A DNA stretch of 64,000 bases from a virus. Each line of letters begins with the position of its first letter. Positions within the stretch are counted from its first letter, which is position 1. The position numbers and the translations under genes were made by a program. The notes beneath the pieces were generated by a model. The model saw only the letters and a list, made by a program, of their open reading frames with translations. It searched no databases and was not told where the DNA came from. Below, in pieces: positions 2,233 through 23,837 of the stretch. The DNA lies in the IMG/VR virus record IMGVR_UViG_3300031251_000007, positions 23,782 to 87,781 of that record. One strand, 5' to 3'.

Positions 2233-2930
2233 TCGAACGGCCGATCCTCTTCAGCGCGCCGATGGTCAAGGCGATCCTCGCCGGCACGAAGACGCAGACG
2301 CGGCGTGTGGTGAAGCCGCAGCCGGAGATGCTCAAGCCGCTCGGCCCGAACGGTACGCCGTGGCCCTACCGCGTCGGCCGGCCGATTGCCGATATGCCCT
2401 CGGCCCGTTTCCATGAGCCATTTCGCTGCCCATACGGCGCGCCTGGCGATCACCTCTGGGTCCGCGAACACTATTTCGTCGCCGAGGTCACAGGCTGCGG
2501 GTCCGGTTATCCGTTCGTCGTGTTCGACGATGAATGGACGCAGGACGGGGGCGCGAAAGAGCCGTGCCCGACAAAGCTGCGCCCGATCACCGGCCAAAAG
2601 TGGGGCAGTCACGCCGGCTTTCATCTGCCACGCGCCGCGTCCCGCATCACGCTTGCCGTCGAATCGGTGCGCATCGAGCGCGTGCAGGACATCACCCTGG
2701 ACGACGCCCGAGCCGAAGGTATTCCGCAGACCGCCGGCGAGGCTCAGGCACTAGGGCTGCATGATCTGACCAAGTCGCCAGGTCACGAGTGGGACAACCG
2801 AACGAGCGCCGAGAACTATGCGCGCCTCTGGGATTCCATCAACGCCGCGCGGGGCTTCGGCTGGGATGCCAACCCCTGGGTTTGGGCGATCACGTTCCGT
2901 GTACTCGAGTCGAAGAGCGCAGCGGGCTGA
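2229..2930 (+). CDS. Conserved phage protein, ASCH/PUA-like
   Basis: ERPILFSAPMVKAILAGTKTQTRR, CPYGxPGDHLWVRE, SRITL..VRIERVQDI..DARAEG and WDANPWVW. Confidence 0.8.
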   Translation: MIERPILFSAPMVKAILAGTKTQTRRVVKPQPEMLKPLGPNGTPWPYRVGRPIADMPSARFHEPFRCPYGAPGDHLWVREHYFVAEVTGCGSGYPFVVFDDEWTQDGGAKEPCPTKLRPITGQKWGSHAGFHLPRAASRITLAVESVRIERVQDITLDDARAEGIPQTAGEAQALGLHDLTKSPGHEWDNRTSAENYARLWDSINAARGFGWDANPWVWAITFRVLESKSAAG

Positions 2931-2951
2931 CCACCACTGAAGGAGACCGCC

Positions 2952-3446
2952 ATGCCATCGCCTCACATCGATCTGACGACAGTCCAGAGCAGCAACGTCG
3001 AAGCGGTCGGCTACGACGCCGCGACGCGGACGCTGCGCGTTCGCTTCAAAGGCGGCAAGGCGTACGACTATGCCGCCGTCCCTGCTGAGATCTATGCCGC
3101 ACTGACGGGCGCCGCCTCGATCGGCAGCTTTCTCGCCACGCAGATCAAAGGCACATACGTCGCCAGCCCGGTCGCCCCGGAGCCCGTGGCAGAGGCCGCC
3201 AAGCGATTCGTCAAGGCGTACGTCGAGCACATCGAATCGGACGGCGCCGTGCGCCTGACGATAAACGCCGACATCGTGCGCGAGCTCGAGGCGCAGCCCG
3301 ACGACTGCGAAGTGCACCTGCTGCTGGTGCAGCGTGACGGCAAGCCACTGGTCGACGTGCTCTATGACCGCGGCGCCGCGCCGTCCCTCAGCGTTGGCGG
3401 GTTGCAGTACCCCATGCCCAACCCCGATCCGCTCAGCCGCACATGA
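2952..3446 (+). CDS. KTSC-domain protein with C-terminal extension
   Basis: VQSSNVEAVGYDAATRTLRVRFKGGKAYDYAAVP...SIGSFLATQIKG. SD AAGGAG. Confidence 0.85.
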   Translation: MPSPHIDLTTVQSSNVEAVGYDAATRTLRVRFKGGKAYDYAAVPAEIYAALTGAASIGSFLATQIKGTYVASPVAPEPVAEAAKRFVKAYVEHIESDGAVRLTINADIVRELEAQPDDCEVHLLLVQRDGKPLVDVLYDRGAAPSLSVGGLQYPMPNPDPLSRT

Positions 3447-3510
3447 TGGGCGCACCGTGAGACCGAAGCGAGCCGCATTTCAGGGAGTACCGAATCGAGG
3501 AGCGCCCAGA
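3431..3510 (+). ncRNA. TIGR-like dual-repeat array, upstream segment (~2 units)
   Basis: gctcagccg-CACATGATG-ggcgcaccg-TGAGACCGA-agcgagccg-CATTTCAGG-gagtaccg-AATCGAGG-agcgcccag. These are the same repeats as the array at 4385-4656. Confidence 0.7.
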
Positions 3511-3537
3511 GTGCTGGGTGGTGAGGAGGACGCGGAG

Positions 3538-4377
3538 ATGGACGAGGCGCTGAGCGAAGACGAGCAACACGCGGTCGTGACACGGCTCCGGCGCGACGTC
3601 GCCGAAGCGGCGCGCACGATGAACCAACGCGAGGGCGAGTATCTGGTGCGCGTCTATCACCAGCAACAGCGCCATCGCCTGGCGCTCGAAGCCCAGTTGC
3701 GCAGCCTCGGCGGCGCACCATCGGCCACGCTCGGCTTTCTGGTGGAACAGGCGCGCACGCTTGAGGCGCAGGTGCGGCGATCGCTCGATCTCTGGACCCG
3801 CGATCATCCGCCCAGTCAGTGGGCGAGAGGGATTGTCGGAGTCGGCCCGGTCGTCACCGCCGAGCTCCGCGCGTACACGCACATCGAGCACTGCCCAACG
3901 GTCGGCCATCTCTGGGCGTTCGCCGGACTCGATCCGACCAAGACGTGGGAGAAGGGCCAGCGCCGGCCGTGGAATCCCGATTTCAAGCGCCTCGCGTTCA
4001 TCTTGGGCGACAGCTTCACCAAGGTGCGCGGCAAGCCGGGCGACATCTACGGCCAGGTCTATTTCGATCGGCGCGCCTACGAAGAGGCGAAGAATCTCGC
4101 CGGTGATTACGCCGAGCAGGCCGCGGCGAGTCTCGGGCGCGTCGGCAAAGAGACCGGCGCGCACAAGCATTACGCGGAGGGCCGCTTGCCGCCGGGGCGC
4201 ATCTTCCTGCGCGCCAAACGCTACGCGGTGAAATTGTTTCTCGCGCACTATCACCACGTCACCTACGTGCACGTGCACGGGACGGAGCCACCGCTGCCCT
4301 ACCCCGTCGTGCATCTGGGCCATGCACACGTCTTCGCGCCGCCGGCGTTCAAGAAAACGGGCACCGAAGACGTGTGA
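3538..4377 (+). CDS. Nop-domain / IS110 C-terminal-like RNA-binding protein, TasA-like (no nuclease domain)
   Basis: SD GAGGAGG then ATG 3538 (279 aa). Coiled coil followed by GIVGVGPVVTAEL...LWAFAGLDP...PWN...Y..Y..R...RAKRYAVKLFL. No DEDD RuvC domain and no catalytic SG loop. Flanked by a dual-repeat array. Confidence 0.8.
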   Translation: MDEALSEDEQHAVVTRLRRDVAEAARTMNQREGEYLVRVYHQQQRHRLALEAQLRSLGGAPSATLGFLVEQARTLEAQVRRSLDLWTRDHPPSQWARGIVGVGPVVTAELRAYTHIEHCPTVGHLWAFAGLDPTKTWEKGQRRPWNPDFKRLAFILGDSFTKVRGKPGDIYGQVYFDRRAYEEAKNLAGDYAEQAAASLGRVGKETGAHKHYAEGRLPPGRIFLRAKRYAVKLFLAHYHHVTYVHVHGTEPPLPYPVVHLGHAHVFAPPAFKKTGTEDV

Positions 4378-4384
4378 CGTTTCA

Positions 4385-4656
4385 CCTGAGCCGCATCAGC
4401 CGAGAGCACCGTGGTGTTGGAGCGATCCACACAGACAGGCAGTGAGCCGACATTCCGGGAGTACCGAGGTGTGGGAGCGAGCCGTCAACTGCGAGAGCAC
4501 CGAGGAGGTTCAAGCGAGCCGATTACCCGAGGAGTACCGAAAGGAGGAGGCGAGCCGAATTGGATCTGGGAGCACCGTGGAGGTGGAGCGAGCCGATCGT
4601 TCTGGGAGCACCGTGGAGAGCGGGCGCACCGATCGCTGTGAGTACCGAAGAGGGGA
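4385..4656 (+). ncRNA. TIGR-like dual-repeat guide array (~7 units, ~36-nt period)
   Basis: Repeat 1 (RGCGAGCCG-like) at 4385, 4421*, 4441, 4476, 4513, 4549, 4587, 4623* (* degenerate). Repeat 2 (RGAGYACCG-like) at 4403, 4458, 4494, 4531, 4569, 4605, 4639. Variable spacers of 7-11 nt, mostly 9. Confidence 0.85.
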
Positions 4657-4662
4657 TTCTGC

Positions 4663-5124
4663 ATGGGTAAGCGTCGGGGCAAAACCGATCACGTTCTATT
4701 CGGCGGCGCGATCGGTGAGGTGGCGCATTGCACGCGCTGCGGCGAGGGCTTGCGCATGGGCATGCCCGTATTGGTCGACGTGCTCGTGGCAGCAGGCAAC
4801 GCGTTCGCGAAGGCGCACAAGAACTGCCCGGATACCGGCCGCGTCGAACCGGCACCAACGACACCTGGGGAGTGGATCGCCAGCCGCGATGTCGGCGTTA
4901 GTTCTGCAACGATCTGGTCGGTGATGACCGGCAAGCCGTCGCCGCTGGAGCGGTACAACACGCCGATGGACGAAGCCGACTTCGGCCGCTGCGATCGGCT
5001 GCTGGCGTTGTTTCCGGAATGGCGTACGCGGCTGCACGAGGTCGCAGAGAAGTTTCCGGCGTGGCGATCCGTCGTTACGCGCTGGGAGGAACGCACCCCG
5101 CAAGCGGCCGGAGCGGACCGCTAG
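4663..5124 (+). CDS. Conserved phage hypothetical protein
   Basis: CxxC, then WIASRDVGVSSATI...PMDEADFGRC.RLL..FPEW. Confidence 0.7.
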   Translation: MGKRRGKTDHVLFGGAIGEVAHCTRCGEGLRMGMPVLVDVLVAAGNAFAKAHKNCPDTGRVEPAPTTPGEWIASRDVGVSSATIWSVMTGKPSPLERYNTPMDEADFGRCDRLLALFPEWRTRLHEVAEKFPAWRSVVTRWEERTPQAAGADR

Positions 5125-5126
5125 CA

Positions 5127-5303
5127 ATGGCCGGCCGCTCTCAGTCTACCCAAGATCTGCGCAACGCGCTCGTTCGCGCCGACGAGCTGTTCTCGCTGCT
5201 CCGAGACTACTGGAACAACGAGGACGACATCGGCGAGCTGATGCCGCGCATTCGAGAGTTTCAGGAAGAGGCACGAGCGATCCTCCGGAGGGAAACGACA
5301 TGA
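5127..5303 (+). CDS. Small hypothetical protein
   Basis: ATG directly after the previous stop. ATGA overlap with the next gene. Confidence 0.55.
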   Translation: MAGRSQSTQDLRNALVRADELFSLLRDYWNNEDDIGELMPRIREFQEEARAILRRETT

Positions 5304-5884
5304 ACATCGAATCGATCACTATGGCTAAGCCCGACGCGCGCGCCGCCTTCGTCGAGTACCGCGACGCCTTGAAGGCCCGACACACGGCCGAAGACGAAGC
5401 GCTGATGCGCGGCTACAAGGCGCTCGCCAAGGGACAGCAGGTCATCGACCTGCACAACGTGATGCGCGCGGCTGGGCTCGACGAGGAAGGACGGCCGCGG
5501 CTGGCGATCTGTCGCGCAGACATCGGATGGGTGCGCTTCCGTCGCTATGACAGGCGCTTTGAATTCAGCGACGCACCCGACACGTTCTGGGGCATCCAGA
5601 ATCGCCATCGACGACTCTACGTCGATCTACCGAAAGAGACGTGGCCCGACGACAAGCTTACGCGCCGCGACTGCCGCGCGATCGTCCCGCCGATCCCGCC
5701 GCGCTTCCGTCCCCAAGGATCACTCAGCCGCTACCACATCCTGTGGGAAGCCGAGTGGCAGGACGTGCCGACCGATCCGCTGCTGCTCAGACACCTCGGC
5801 GGCGCGCTGTATGCGGTGCTGGCGCAATGGGACCTCTCCGCATTGGAAAGGGCCGTGCTGCGCGGCCGGCTCGGGGCGCGATGA
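5300..5884 (+). CDS. Conserved phage hypothetical protein
   Basis: SD GGAGGG. GLDEEGRPRLAICRAD...YHILWEAEW..VP.DPLLL..L...LYAVLAQWDL. Confidence 0.75.
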   Translation: MNIESITMAKPDARAAFVEYRDALKARHTAEDEALMRGYKALAKGQQVIDLHNVMRAAGLDEEGRPRLAICRADIGWVRFRRYDRRFEFSDAPDTFWGIQNRHRRLYVDLPKETWPDDKLTRRDCRAIVPPIPPRFRPQGSLSRYHILWEAEWQDVPTDPLLLRHLGGALYAVLAQWDLSALERAVLRGRLGAR

Positions 5885-6494: not shown

Positions 6495-6761
6495 ATGGAG
6501 GAGACAATGCGAGGCGATTTGCGACTGACCGATTTGGGACCGCGCCGGACAGAGAGCAAGCTGATGAACACGAAGGTGCCTGAGAATGTGCTGCAGGCGA
6601 TCGGGGCCGCGGCCGCCGAGCTCGGGTGCTCGAAGACGGATGTCATTGTGGCGCTGTTCAACGAAGGGCTGGATGTGTTCGAGGCCAAGCGGGCGGAGTT
6701 TGAGACGATTGGGGCGCCGAGGGTACGGCGGGGGCGGCCGCCGGTGGCGCGCGCGGAGTAG
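6495..6761 (+). CDS. Ribbon-helix-helix-like DNA-binding protein
   Basis: LMNTKVPENVLQAIGAAAAELGCSKTDVIVALF fits the RHH pattern. C-terminal RRGRP. Confidence 0.55.
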   Translation: MEETMRGDLRLTDLGPRRTESKLMNTKVPENVLQAIGAAAAELGCSKTDVIVALFNEGLDVFEAKRAEFETIGAPRVRRGRPPVARAE

Positions 6762-20052: not shown

Positions 20053-21533
20053 AGGAACGTGCCGTAGGGATACAGCGCGGTGGTGTTGTCAGTGCACGTC
20101 CCGCTGCACACCGCGTAGAAATGCACGCGGTCGCCTTGCGTGAACGTGTTCGTGGTGGTGTCGGTACAGGTGCCCGCAGCCGCGGTGACTGCACAGCTCG
20201 CGAGGGAAGTGGCACTTTCGTTCTTGGTGTAGCCAATGGTGATTGTGGCGCCGGTGGGCCACGTCCCGAAGGCATTGACCCTCGCCGAGAACGTGCCGGT
20301 GGTGCAGCTCTCCGGCAAGATGTCGAATTCGTAGACGGTCAGTAGCGCGTTCGAAGTGTTGTCCTTGATGTACTTCCGGGACGAAAGGGTCGACGCTGTC
20401 ACCTGAGCGACGCCGCGCATAGCGAACGAGAGCCTCGCTGAGACATTGGCCTTGGTCGCAACGTCGGCGCTGTTGGAGTAGCTGCCGGCGTAGCGACACG
20501 ACGTTGACGAGGTGTTGCCGCAGTCGATGACGCTGGTCACCACCAGCTTCGTCATCGTCTGCAGATTTGCGCCGAAGCTGTTCGCTTCGTCCTCATAGGC
20601 GATCGCTGTCGGGAGATCCGCCTTATCGATCGCCCCGTCCTGCGTGATCTGCGAGCCGGGTGCGACGTTGATCTTCGACGGGTCACTCGAATCGACCGAC
20701 ACGTCGAACAACGAGCTGAAGTTCAGGGTGAAGCCAGAGCCGATGAGTGTGCTGTTGTTCTCGACGCGCATCGGCGTCCGATCGACCGTCCACACGCCGG
20801 CCTCGCTGTAGAACATGCGCATCGACTGGCCGGCGGCGATATAGACCGGGCTGCCGGGTGTGTTCAGCACGTTGGTCACATCGGCAAATTTCACCCGCCC
20901 GGCCGATGCTTTGACGTTGAAGATCGTAACGACCTGGCCGGCGCGCGCGCTCGTCTCCTGCATCGTGCCGTCACAGCCGCCGCTGGTGTCGCTGCACGTG
21001 ATCTCGACGTAGGACTTCGACGGATCGAGGTTGAACGTCGCGGCTGAGCTGTTGCCCGAGTCGGCGACGCTGACGGCCTGCGTGTCGAGGTCGAGCACCT
21101 TCAGATCGGCGCGGCCGGTCGAGGCGTCGGAGATGCGCAGCACGCCGGCGGCGTCGCGCGCCAGGCCGACGTCGCTCCACGGCACCTGCTGGCTGTTGCC
21201 GAGCGCGCCGCTCATCAGCGCCCAGTTCTGCACGCGGGTCCAGCCCGACGCGTTGCAGCTCGAGCCGGGGCACGAGTACATCACCCCGAGATCGTCGATG
21301 ATGACCTCGCCGTTCAGGCCGTCGGTCTGCGCGGTCGGTGTGTCGGCGCGACGTAGCTGCAGCGTCGGCGAGTTGGCGGCGCGACTGGTGCCGCTCGACG
21401 AATCGCCGGGGTCGATCTTGATGACGTCGACGGCGCCGTTCTTCAGGCTGACCGAGCCAGACGCGCCCGGCTGCAGAGCGAGCGACGGCGCCGCGAGCAG
21501 CAGCGCGCCAAATGCCAGAAGTACCCGGCGCAT
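20037..21533 (-). CDS. Secreted fibre-like beta-rich protein
   Basis: Signal peptide MRRVLLAFGALLLAAPSLA. DVGLARDAAGVLRI fibre-like motif. Confidence 0.7.
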   Translation of the reverse strand: MRRVLLAFGALLLAAPSLALQPGASGSVSLKNGAVDVIKIDPGDSSSGTSRAANSPTLQLRRADTPTAQTDGLNGEVIIDDLGVMYSCPGSSCNASGWTRVQNWALMSGALGNSQQVPWSDVGLARDAAGVLRISDASTGRADLKVLDLDTQAVSVADSGNSSAATFNLDPSKSYVEITCSDTSGGCDGTMQETSARAGQVVTIFNVKASAGRVKFADVTNVLNTPGSPVYIAAGQSMRMFYSEAGVWTVDRTPMRVENNSTLIGSGFTLNFSSLFDVSVDSSDPSKINVAPGSQITQDGAIDKADLPTAIAYEDEANSFGANLQTMTKLVVTSVIDCGNTSSTSCRYAGSYSNSADVATKANVSARLSFAMRGVAQVTASTLSSRKYIKDNTSNALLTVYEFDILPESCTTGTFSARVNAFGTWPTGATITIGYTKNESATSLASCAVTAAAGTCTDTTTNTFTQGDRVHFYAVCSGTCTDNTTALYPYGTFLCSAN

Positions 21534-23465: not shown

Positions 23466-23837
23466 TTAGCTCTGCGCGGCCGACTGATCGGCCGGCGGCG
23501 CGCTCGGCACCGGGTTCTCCGGGTCGGCGCCGATGGCGCGCAGCGCGTCCAGGTGCGCGTTGATCTCCGTCTGGATCTGCGCCGCCTGCTCGTCGGTGAG
23601 GCCGCCGGCTTGCTGCTGCGCAACGAGGGCGGCCAGCTTGTCGGCGATGCGCGTGGTCTCGCTGTCGACCGCGCTCAGCGCGCTCTGAATGTCATCGAAT
23701 CGGGGCATGAGTTCCTCCTTCGTGGCGATCCGCGCCACACGGGCATTGGTGCGCAGCGTGGCGCACAAGTTGACGACGCCGAGCGCGGCCAGTCCGCAGA
23801 CCGCCGCGCCGGCGCCAATGAGAAGAGCCGTCGTCAC
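23466..23837 (-). CDS. Membrane-anchored coiled-coil protein
   Basis: N-terminal TM, then an amphipathic helical region. Alternative start at 23709. Confidence 0.6.
   Translation of the reverse strand: MTTALLIGAGAAVCGLAALGVVNLCATLRTNARVARIATKEELMPRFDDIQSALSAVDSETTRIADKLAALVAQQQAGGLTDEQAAQIQTEINAHLDALRAIGADPENPVPSAPPADQSAAQS

Follow-up and report, generated by a model that had tools for sequence, protein, structure and literature searches.

The tasA locus and its repeat arrays

The window analysed here is a 64,000-nt stretch (positions 23,782 to 87,781) of IMG/VR record IMGVR_UViG_3300031251_000007, a single virus contig of 87,781 nt with a G+C content of 66%; positions given below are those of the window. 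The gene tasA (3538–4377, + strand) is bracketed by two arrays of short alternating repeats on its own strand, one upstream at 3430–3509 (2 units) and one downstream at 4384–4655 (6 complete units and 1 partial unit). As judged from the sequence, a structural model and analogy with published systems, the locus is very probably a TIGR-Tas system of the dual-repeat kind with a nuclease-free TasA, and its carrier is an uncultured 87.8-kb rhizosphere phage. Identical pieces of the contig, arrays included, are present in rhizosphere metagenome runs, and the finding of the same arrays in contigs of four other runs excludes an assembly artefact.

Both arrays are built from two repeats in alternation, the edge repeat GAGCGAGCCG and the loop repeat GRGAGYACCG, and about 8 variable bases separate each from the next. 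This 10-nt register is equivalent to the 9+9 register of the original prediction, which was made from the sequence alone and described a dual-repeat array around a Nop-like protein. The spacing from edge to loop, the half-period, is mostly 18 nt. Spacer A follows the edge and spacer B follows the loop. The upstream array overlaps the last codons and the stop of a KTSC-domain gene, its first unit lying over the stop. It opens with a 5′-truncated edge (3430–3439), which is followed by unit U1 (spacer A 3440–3447, hybrid loop-like repeat 3448–3457, spacer B 3458–3465) and unit U2 (edge 3466–3475, spacer A 3476–3482, loop 3483–3492, spacer B 3493–3499), and it closes with a 3′-truncated edge (3500–3509).

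Downstream of tasA, the conserved part of the first edge begins 9 nt past the stop codon (4375–4377). Sub-array 1 (4384–4429, + strand) holds the single unit D1, made up of a 5′-truncated edge (4384–4393), spacer A (4394–4401), a loop (4402–4411), spacer B (4412–4419) and a closing edge (4420–4429). After a non-repeat break of 10 nt (4430–4439), sub-array 2 (4440–4631, + strand) carries units D2 to D6, with edges starting at 4440, 4475, 4512, 4548 and 4586 and loops at 4457, 4493, 4530, 4568 and 4604; it is closed by a hybrid repeat at 4622–4631. These five units measure 35, 37, 36, 38 and 36 nt in order. The partial unit D7 (4632–4655, + strand) consists of a 6-nt spacer A, a loop (4638–4647) and a spacer-B-like stretch (4648–4655), without a closing edge. 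At its 3′ end the array reaches into the region where the following gene starts (ATG 4663), and the spacer-B-like stretch of D7 likely serves also as the ribosome-binding site of that gene. The original prediction of about 7 units, with about 2 more upstream of the gene, therefore agrees with the 6 complete units, 1 partial unit and 2 upstream units delineated here. The same hybrid repeat, its centre half edge-like and half loop-like, occupies a loop position at 3448–3457 and an edge position at 4622–4631.

Edge and loop repeats alike open with R-G, and all complete repeats finish in CCG, save one closing edge that ends in CCA. The half edges are correct, and box C and box D ends are present on both sides, in 8/8 complete units. 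The edge centre reads C-GA-G, in which a C-G pair is possible, and the loop centre reads A-GY-A, in which no pair forms, although the classifier used to assign the repeats is biased toward these consensus bases. In the description of the TaTasR structure (section 8 of PMC12045711), the edge centre holds an extra pair and the loop centre is unpaired, a pattern that the centres read here would fit. Box D-like and box C-like ends on both repeats belong to the published dual-repeat architecture, and the assignment to TIGR-Tas systems of the TasA type was upheld in part on this ground.

The alternation lies well outside what chance would produce. For the composite pattern GCGAGCCG-N7-11-GAGYACCG, the window has 4 matches and each of 100 shuffles has 0, and the repeat chain of 14 hits compares with a maximum of 4 across 100 shuffles. 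The 87.8-kb contig has 12 plus-strand GAG[CT]ACCG sites, 8 of them inside the locus. No other repeat chain with more than 3 hits was found in the contig, so that the tas array is single there. Tandem Repeats Finder (TRF) reported a period of 36. Folding of the array RNA gave no more structure than in shuffled sequences (z = +1.0), and a search of the locus against Rfam returned zero matches at E <= 1.

At 4543–4635, TRF detected two 36-nt copies, neighbouring units being 83–86% identical with the spacers included. Between the upstream unit at 3467–3493 and the downstream unit at 4441–4467 the identity is 81% over 27 nt, spacer A included. Such resemblance suggests that the array grew by duplication of units, which then diverged. 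An open reading frame (ORF) of 76 amino acids (aa) at 4411–4641 stays open through the downstream array, the array period being divisible by three. This ORF is in all likelihood spurious, since the long arrays of relatives hold stops in every frame.

The tasA product is 279 aa long when read from the ATG at 3538; it has a coiled coil and a Nop domain, and no nuclease domain is present. The motif GAGGAGG at 3523–3529 stands 8 nt 5′ of this ATG. An alternative start, GTG 3511, is used in the protein database and yields 288 aa. A short inverted repeat (3505–3518; 5-bp stem, 4-nt loop), recognized by eye only, lies between the truncated edge that ends the upstream array and the tasA ribosome-binding site.

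TasA homology and the family of related loci

In a phmmer search of the PDB, the best matches of the tasA product were TaTasR (9mty_A, 4.5e-9) and SpTasH (21kl_A, 3.1e-7). A profile built from 27 family sequences matched TaTasR at E 3.9e-23 and SpTasH at 2.3e-15, followed by IS621 at 1.9e-4. The protein is matched by PHROG 4285, labelled 'transposase', at 1e-34. Its single Pfam match, to the IS110-family entry PF02371, is sub-threshold (17.5 bits vs a cutoff of 21.3), and Pfam showed neither a nuclease family nor a DEDD family.

An AlphaFold2 (AF2) model of the protein (predicted local distance difference test, pLDDT, 88.9; predicted template modelling score, pTM, 0.83) is all-helical, with three long helices at the start. 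Every one of the top 10 Foldseek rows is a TasR or TasH chain. Structural alignment with VIA-align gave Z 20.4 for TasH (222 residues, root-mean-square deviation 3.2, 21% identity) and Z 19.9 for TasR, both alignments spanning model residues 27–270. ISCro4 and IS621 were aligned with Z of about 14, the IS621 match covering its residues 125–321 only, and archaeal Nop5 (1nt2_B) was a distant match (Z 7.9, 145 residues, 11% identity). By its sequence and modelled fold, the tasA product is a homologue of the solved TasR and TasH proteins across the coiled coil and the Nop domain. The original prediction of a Nop/IS110-like protein with a coiled coil was borne out, the structural search that it proposed having returned a Nop-like fold with TasR and TasH at the top.

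The alignments begin at model residue 27, which corresponds to residue 65 of TasH and residue 111 of TasR. With only 26 N-terminal residues before this point, there is no room for a nuclease domain and no counterpart of the nuclease of TasH or TasR. The homologues are of the same length as the tasA product (261–328 aa). The predicted lack of a RuvC or HNH nuclease was in this way confirmed by both Pfam and the structural alignments.

A G-x-G-P turn, G101-V-G-P104 (codons 3838–3849, + strand), is common to TasR, TasH and IS621 in the profile alignments, and G101, G103 and P104 are invariant in 27/27 aligned family members. In the profile alignment, the C-terminal segment P-Y255-P-V-V-H-L-G-H262 (Y255 to H262 codons 4300–4323, + strand; Y255 4300–4302, H262 4321–4323) was aligned to Y289...H296 of SpTasH. 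Both Y255 and H262 are invariant in 27/27 aligned homologues, and H262 falls within a low-confidence, flexible C-terminal loop of the AF2 model. According to the cited part of PMC13421893, Y289 and H296 of SpTasH are the catalytic residues of pre-tigRNA maturation; the processing role of the Tyr/His pair is stated likewise in section 10 of preprint 10.64898/2026.09.09.750476. The tasA product keeps every family-invariant residue, the processing pair included. The absence of a catalytic Ser loop, to which attention had been drawn earlier, concerns an IS110 feature and is beside the point; the relevant RNA-processing pair is present.

The homologue set comprised 1107 proteins at E <= 1e-3. Two of them (P0002 and P0003) are 75% identical to the tasA product, and the rest are <=58% identical, mostly about 50%. 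No close relative came up when viral and metagenome contigs were scanned with the single protein, and the best metagenome match in an alignment-based scan had 47% identity or less. For comparison of loci, 118 were taken from viral and prokaryotic contigs and 22 from metagenomes. The survey of arrays covered 119 sources (the 118 loci and the window), a chain being 3 or more repeats of the family repeat consensus. Chains were found on the tas strand in 89/119 sources vs 1/119 on the opposite strand; in the remaining 30/119 sources the repeats may have diverged, the flanks may be truncated or an array may be absent. Across 51 de-duplicated loci, 471/522 first spacers and 508/538 second spacers are of standard length (90–94%), and 472/522 and 479/538, respectively, are unique. 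The gene is thus linked to arrays family-wide, and the expectation that homologous loci would keep the repeats and vary the spacers held.

In the same 51 loci, CC is followed by A or G in about 97%, and the next eight positions are of near-uniform composition. Box C has G as its third base at 42–45% of the parsed spacer starts in homologous arrays, and A at 52–55%. The G fraction of this base is correlated between edge and loop (r = 0.94 across 52 loci), and three loci besides the window are all-CCG (L019, L051 and L066). Covariation of diverged motifs between edge and loop is described, together with the motif definition, in section 8 of PMC12045711. The proposal of an undescribed GC-rich variant was abandoned in view of these frequencies, the other all-CCG loci and the covariation. 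Family-wide, about 61% of spacers have A or T directly after CCR, and the following positions lean toward purines, which may reflect RNA or protein contact rather than targets.

The window array, with 14 repeat hits, is among the shorter ones of the family, in which there are relatives with 20–50. Very long arrays are seen in L005 (3297–4547) and L044 (1638–2477), with chains of 40–46 repeat hits, and in L071 (3353–5004), with >100 hits. Three named strains carry a homologous tasA (43–50% identity) with arrays of the same type: Acidobacteriaceae bacterium KBS 96 (L081) with a 12-hit chain, and Halomonas sp. NO4 (L085) and Effusibacillus consociatus CCUG 53762 (L090) with short chains. Distant relatives occur in cultured phages, in 79 Mycobacterium phage records (about 31% identity over residues 47–184), where they are annotated as hypothetical protein, transposase or DNA-binding protein.

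Since the array anatomy and the TasA protein match the published definition of a dual-repeat TIGR system, the locus was placed within known TIGR-Tas. It is an ordinary dual-repeat TIGR-TasA and a new member of the published family. FpTIGR of Flavonifractor plautii, compared by its description in the cited parts of PMC12045711 only, also has a solo coiled-coil and Nop protein carried by a phage. It also has two alternating short repeats with spacers of about 9 nt and a 36-nt period, arrays on both sides of the gene and on the same strand, and truncated edge repeats at the start and end of the arrays. The window differs from it in that box C is CCG and not CCA, the units vary from 34 to 38 nt, no terminator is present, and the second spacers are rich in purines and similar to one another.

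SpTasH of Salicola phage CGphi29 (PDB 9w03, 9w04, 21kl) is the closest structural match to the window protein. As described in the cited part of PMC13421893, it shares the C-terminal Tyr/His pair (Y289/H296 vs Y255/H262), dual-repeat arrays and 8+8 variable bases, but carries an N-terminal HNH nuclease and cuts DNA, whereas the window protein begins at the coiled coil. TaTasR (PDB 9mty) resembles the window in its Nop domain and coiled coil, in the box D/box C logic of the repeat ends and possibly in the extra edge base pair; it differs by an active RuvC (residues 1 to about 110) and by repeats of the form UG...CCA (cited parts of PMC12045711). In the profile alignment, TaTasR has Trp at the position of the catalytic Tyr of SpTasH and the window protein. 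MbTasA, PlTasA and BlTasA are, like the window protein, nuclease-free Tas proteins, and they bind DNA by way of two-spacer guides. Unlike it, they use hairpin-framed guides of variable length and CUU-motif processing, without a Tyr/His loop (excerpts of 10.64898/2026.09.09.750476 and 10.64898/2026.08.11.744272).

Outside the TIGR-Tas family, IS621 (8wt6) and ISCro4 (9t56) have in common with the window an RNA-binding Nop-like domain and a two-part guide logic. In contrast, IS110-family recombinases are mobile, combine a DEDD recombinase domain with a catalytic Ser domain, and rely on one bridge RNA in place of an array; the window locus showed none of these features. An IS110-family insertion sequence was rejected as an identity for the locus on the sub-threshold PF02371 match only, the lack of a DEDD family, the fold match limited to IS621 residues 125–321 and the lack of an Rfam match. 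CRISPR-Cas was rejected as well: its single repeats of 25–36 nt, spacers of similar size and cas genes differ from two alternating 10-nt repeats with 8-nt spacers, and no Cas family was matched by the 10 neighbouring proteins scanned with Pfam and PHROGs. To Nop5 and Nop56/58 of box C/D particles, which have a fibrillarin-binding N-terminal domain and K-turn guides with L7Ae, the relation seen is the distant Nop5 fold match.

The tas locus sits in the DNA-metabolism region of the contig, and every neighbour of tasA is on the + strand. Among the 10 neighbour proteins, those on the 5′ side are a D12 adenine methyltransferase, a sulfotransferase-like protein, two proteins of unknown function and the KTSC-domain protein (2952–3446, + strand, stop 3444–3446), which is separate from TasA. 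On the 3′ side are proteins of unknown function and a SNF2 helicase.

Proposed mode of action

Published work offers a framework in which the locus can be read. In excerpts of preprint 10.64898/2026.09.09.750476, the number of tas loci is put at 20,096 and that of annotated arrays at 6,685. RNAs of 36 nt are bound by FpTasA, a dual-repeat protein (section 5 of PMC12045711), and the stem-loop MbTasA binds target DNA and represses reporters (section 12 of the preprint). By homology to such systems, we infer that the window locus is transcribed, that its RNA is processed to about 36 nt and that the product binds and represses DNA at a target named by the guides.

The arrays would be co-transcribed with tasA on the + strand, as suggested by their common strand, the strand bias of the family and the lack of any promoter or terminator in the scan. 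On the precedent of SpTasH and FpTasA, Y255 and H262 in the flexible C-terminal loop are predicted to cut within each edge repeat. The resulting guide, with one loop repeat and two half edges, would be loaded on a TasA dimer that is joined by the N-terminal coiled coil and binds the box D/box C ends. Such a complex may then unwind a DNA site of 16–18 bp, spacers A and B each pairing with a different strand. Being free of a nuclease, it would remain bound and act as a roadblock to transcription or another DNA transaction, presumably at a site in the host or in a rival element outside the contig. The reversible transcriptional repression described for MbTasA (10.64898/2026.09.09.750476, in the part cited) is the role proposed for the window TasA.

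The orientation of the two halves can be derived from published cleavage. Target cutting leaves 8-nt 3′ overhangs according to the cited part of PMC12045711; one strand of the target should therefore carry first spacer B and then the reverse complement of spacer A, by our derivation the sole arrangement that gives 3′ overhangs.

Several points weigh against this proposal. The nine units measure 36, 34, 36, 35, 37, 36, 38, 36 and 34 nt, so that exactly 36 nt is found in only 4/9. The array is less regular than originally claimed, although the 36-nt period itself was recovered by TRF. According to the cited part of preprint 10.64898/2026.09.09.750476, the length of dual-repeat guides is constant at 36 nt, and some of the units that depart from this length may be processed poorly or not at all; the published description in PMC12045711 permits spacers of up to 12 nt. 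No sigma-70-like promoter was seen on the + strand in a promoter scan, and no terminator-like site was seen on the + strand in 2800–5400, whereas the published layout typically has a terminator. The repression experiments, as presented in the same preprint, were done on TasA of the stem-loop type and not on dual-repeat TasA.

The spacers add to these points. The claim that they are unique applies to the first spacers, which are random-like (mean pairwise identity 0.23). It fails for the second spacers, which resemble each other (0.45, vs a maximum of 0.34 in 52 homologous arrays), where independent guides would be expected to differ. Nor was a target found in the phage's own contig: in both geometries, no contiguous match with <=2 mismatches was present in the 87.8 kb. 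A split-half search of the contig (gaps 0–4, up to 2 mismatches) compared the 9 true pairs of spacers with 72 permuted pairs and showed no enrichment, with 2 hits for true pairs in the published geometry and 4 in the other, against 39 and 26 for permuted pairs. Two matches with 3 mismatches in the contig were inspected, and neither was a convincing gene start. Spacer words are not avoided in the contig (observed 105 vs expected 134.7; about 42 vs 43 when one 6-mer is left out). Second-spacer words occur exactly 15 times in the contig and precede some long ORF start in 6 cases, which is uninformative at 66% GC.

Overall, the original observation was confirmed and its interpretation is supported, every part open to computation having passed.

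Alternative readings and significance

The bias of the second spacers is unexplained and possibly informative. One reading, which would refine rather than replace that of a nuclease-free TIGR-TasA, is that the guides are not independent and are all aimed at the regions where translation starts in genes of the host or of a rival phage. The conserved spacer B would read the Shine-Dalgarno half of such a region and the variable spacer A the gene-specific half by the start codon. We hold this to be rather unlikely, but the composition of the spacers points in its direction. Spacer B contains G at 36/72 positions and C at 5/72, its G fraction being the highest among the loci compared. A Shine-Dalgarno core tetramer is present in 7/9 second spacers vs 49/476 units of homologous arrays, and AT is found within the first 4 nt of 7/9 first spacers vs 92/476; the two features are combined in 6/9 vs 15/476. 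In the reverse complement of spacer A, ATG falls in the last 5 nt in 4/9 vs 31/476. In the published geometry, the predicted targets hence show a purine motif like a ribosome-binding site, then a distance of about 7 nt, then an ATG in 4/9. The likeness of the second spacers exceeds that of all 52 homologous arrays.

Nevertheless, the Shine-Dalgarno and AT motif definitions were post hoc, chosen after the data had been seen, and the ATG is present in only 4/9 predicted targets. The units are related by duplication and are not independent samples, so that the likeness of spacer B in part reflects their being duplicates. The mild preference for A/T and then purines across the family also means that the locus may be the extreme of an RNA- or protein-contact preference, and no matching start region was found in the phage's own contig.

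A second possibility, likewise judged rather unlikely, is that the locus encodes a guided DNA-binding complex whose role is other than silencing, such as bending of DNA for recombination or integration, a replication block of a rival element, or partition. Options of this kind are listed in the discussion of PMC12045711, where a target bend of about 180 degrees is noted, and the neighbouring genes are of DNA metabolism (D12 methyltransferase, SNF2 helicase). On the other side, the 10 scanned neighbour proteins include no ParB-like protein or integrase, and the sole direct functional data for TasA, as given in the cited part of 10.64898/2026.09.09.750476, are of reversible transcriptional repression.

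The array could also be a decaying relic, in which tasA is intact while the guides have drifted by duplications and indels and no longer direct binding; this we consider distinctly unlikely. Five of 9 units are not 36 nt long, against the 90–94% of standard-length spacers in homologous arrays, and the array is short beside the 20–50 repeat hits of relatives. The hybrid repeats at 3448–3457 and 4622–4631, the last unit without a closing edge, and the near-duplicate neighbouring units (83–86% over 36 nt) are all of the kind that decay would leave. However, correct half edges with box C and box D ends are kept in 8/8 complete units, as are all family-invariant residues of the protein, the processing pair too. 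Spacers in the cited part of PMC12045711 range up to 12 nt, and the locus is identical in the contigs of four other runs, with no ongoing decay.

That there is no guide array at all, but a coding tandem repeat of 12 residues (ORF 4411–4641) or debris of an IS110-type insertion, would fit the one frame open across the downstream array, the sole Pfam match to PF02371 and the 'transposase' label of PHROG 4285, but is very improbable, since 35/63 family arrays, every long one among them, have stops in all three forward frames and so are not protein-coding, tasA is flanked on either side by the same repeats, the DEDD transposase domain is absent, the match to IS621 (Z 14) is weaker than that to TasH/TasR (Z 20), and the tas locus is single-copy in the contig, as checked for the arrays.

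TIGR-Tas systems, described in 2025, are under development as compact genome tools that are free of a protospacer adjacent motif (PAM). The natural targets of TIGR arrays and the way in which they gain spacers are open questions according to the cited parts of PMC12045711 and preprint 10.64898/2026.09.09.750476. The nuclease-free TIGR-TasA locus in the window offers two small handles on them, namely conserved second spacers that resemble ribosome-binding sites beside variable first spacers, and a visible duplication of units. Should the guides not be aimed at start regions, the locus would be a further annotated case of a dual-repeat TasA in a soil phage. Should they be, TasA would be a natural silencer that sits at the very start of selected genes of the host or of rival phages. 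Growth of the array would then have come about by unit duplication with diversification of spacer A only, which would hint at gain of guides without adaptation machinery, and a testable rule would be at hand for the natural targets of nuclease-free TasA.

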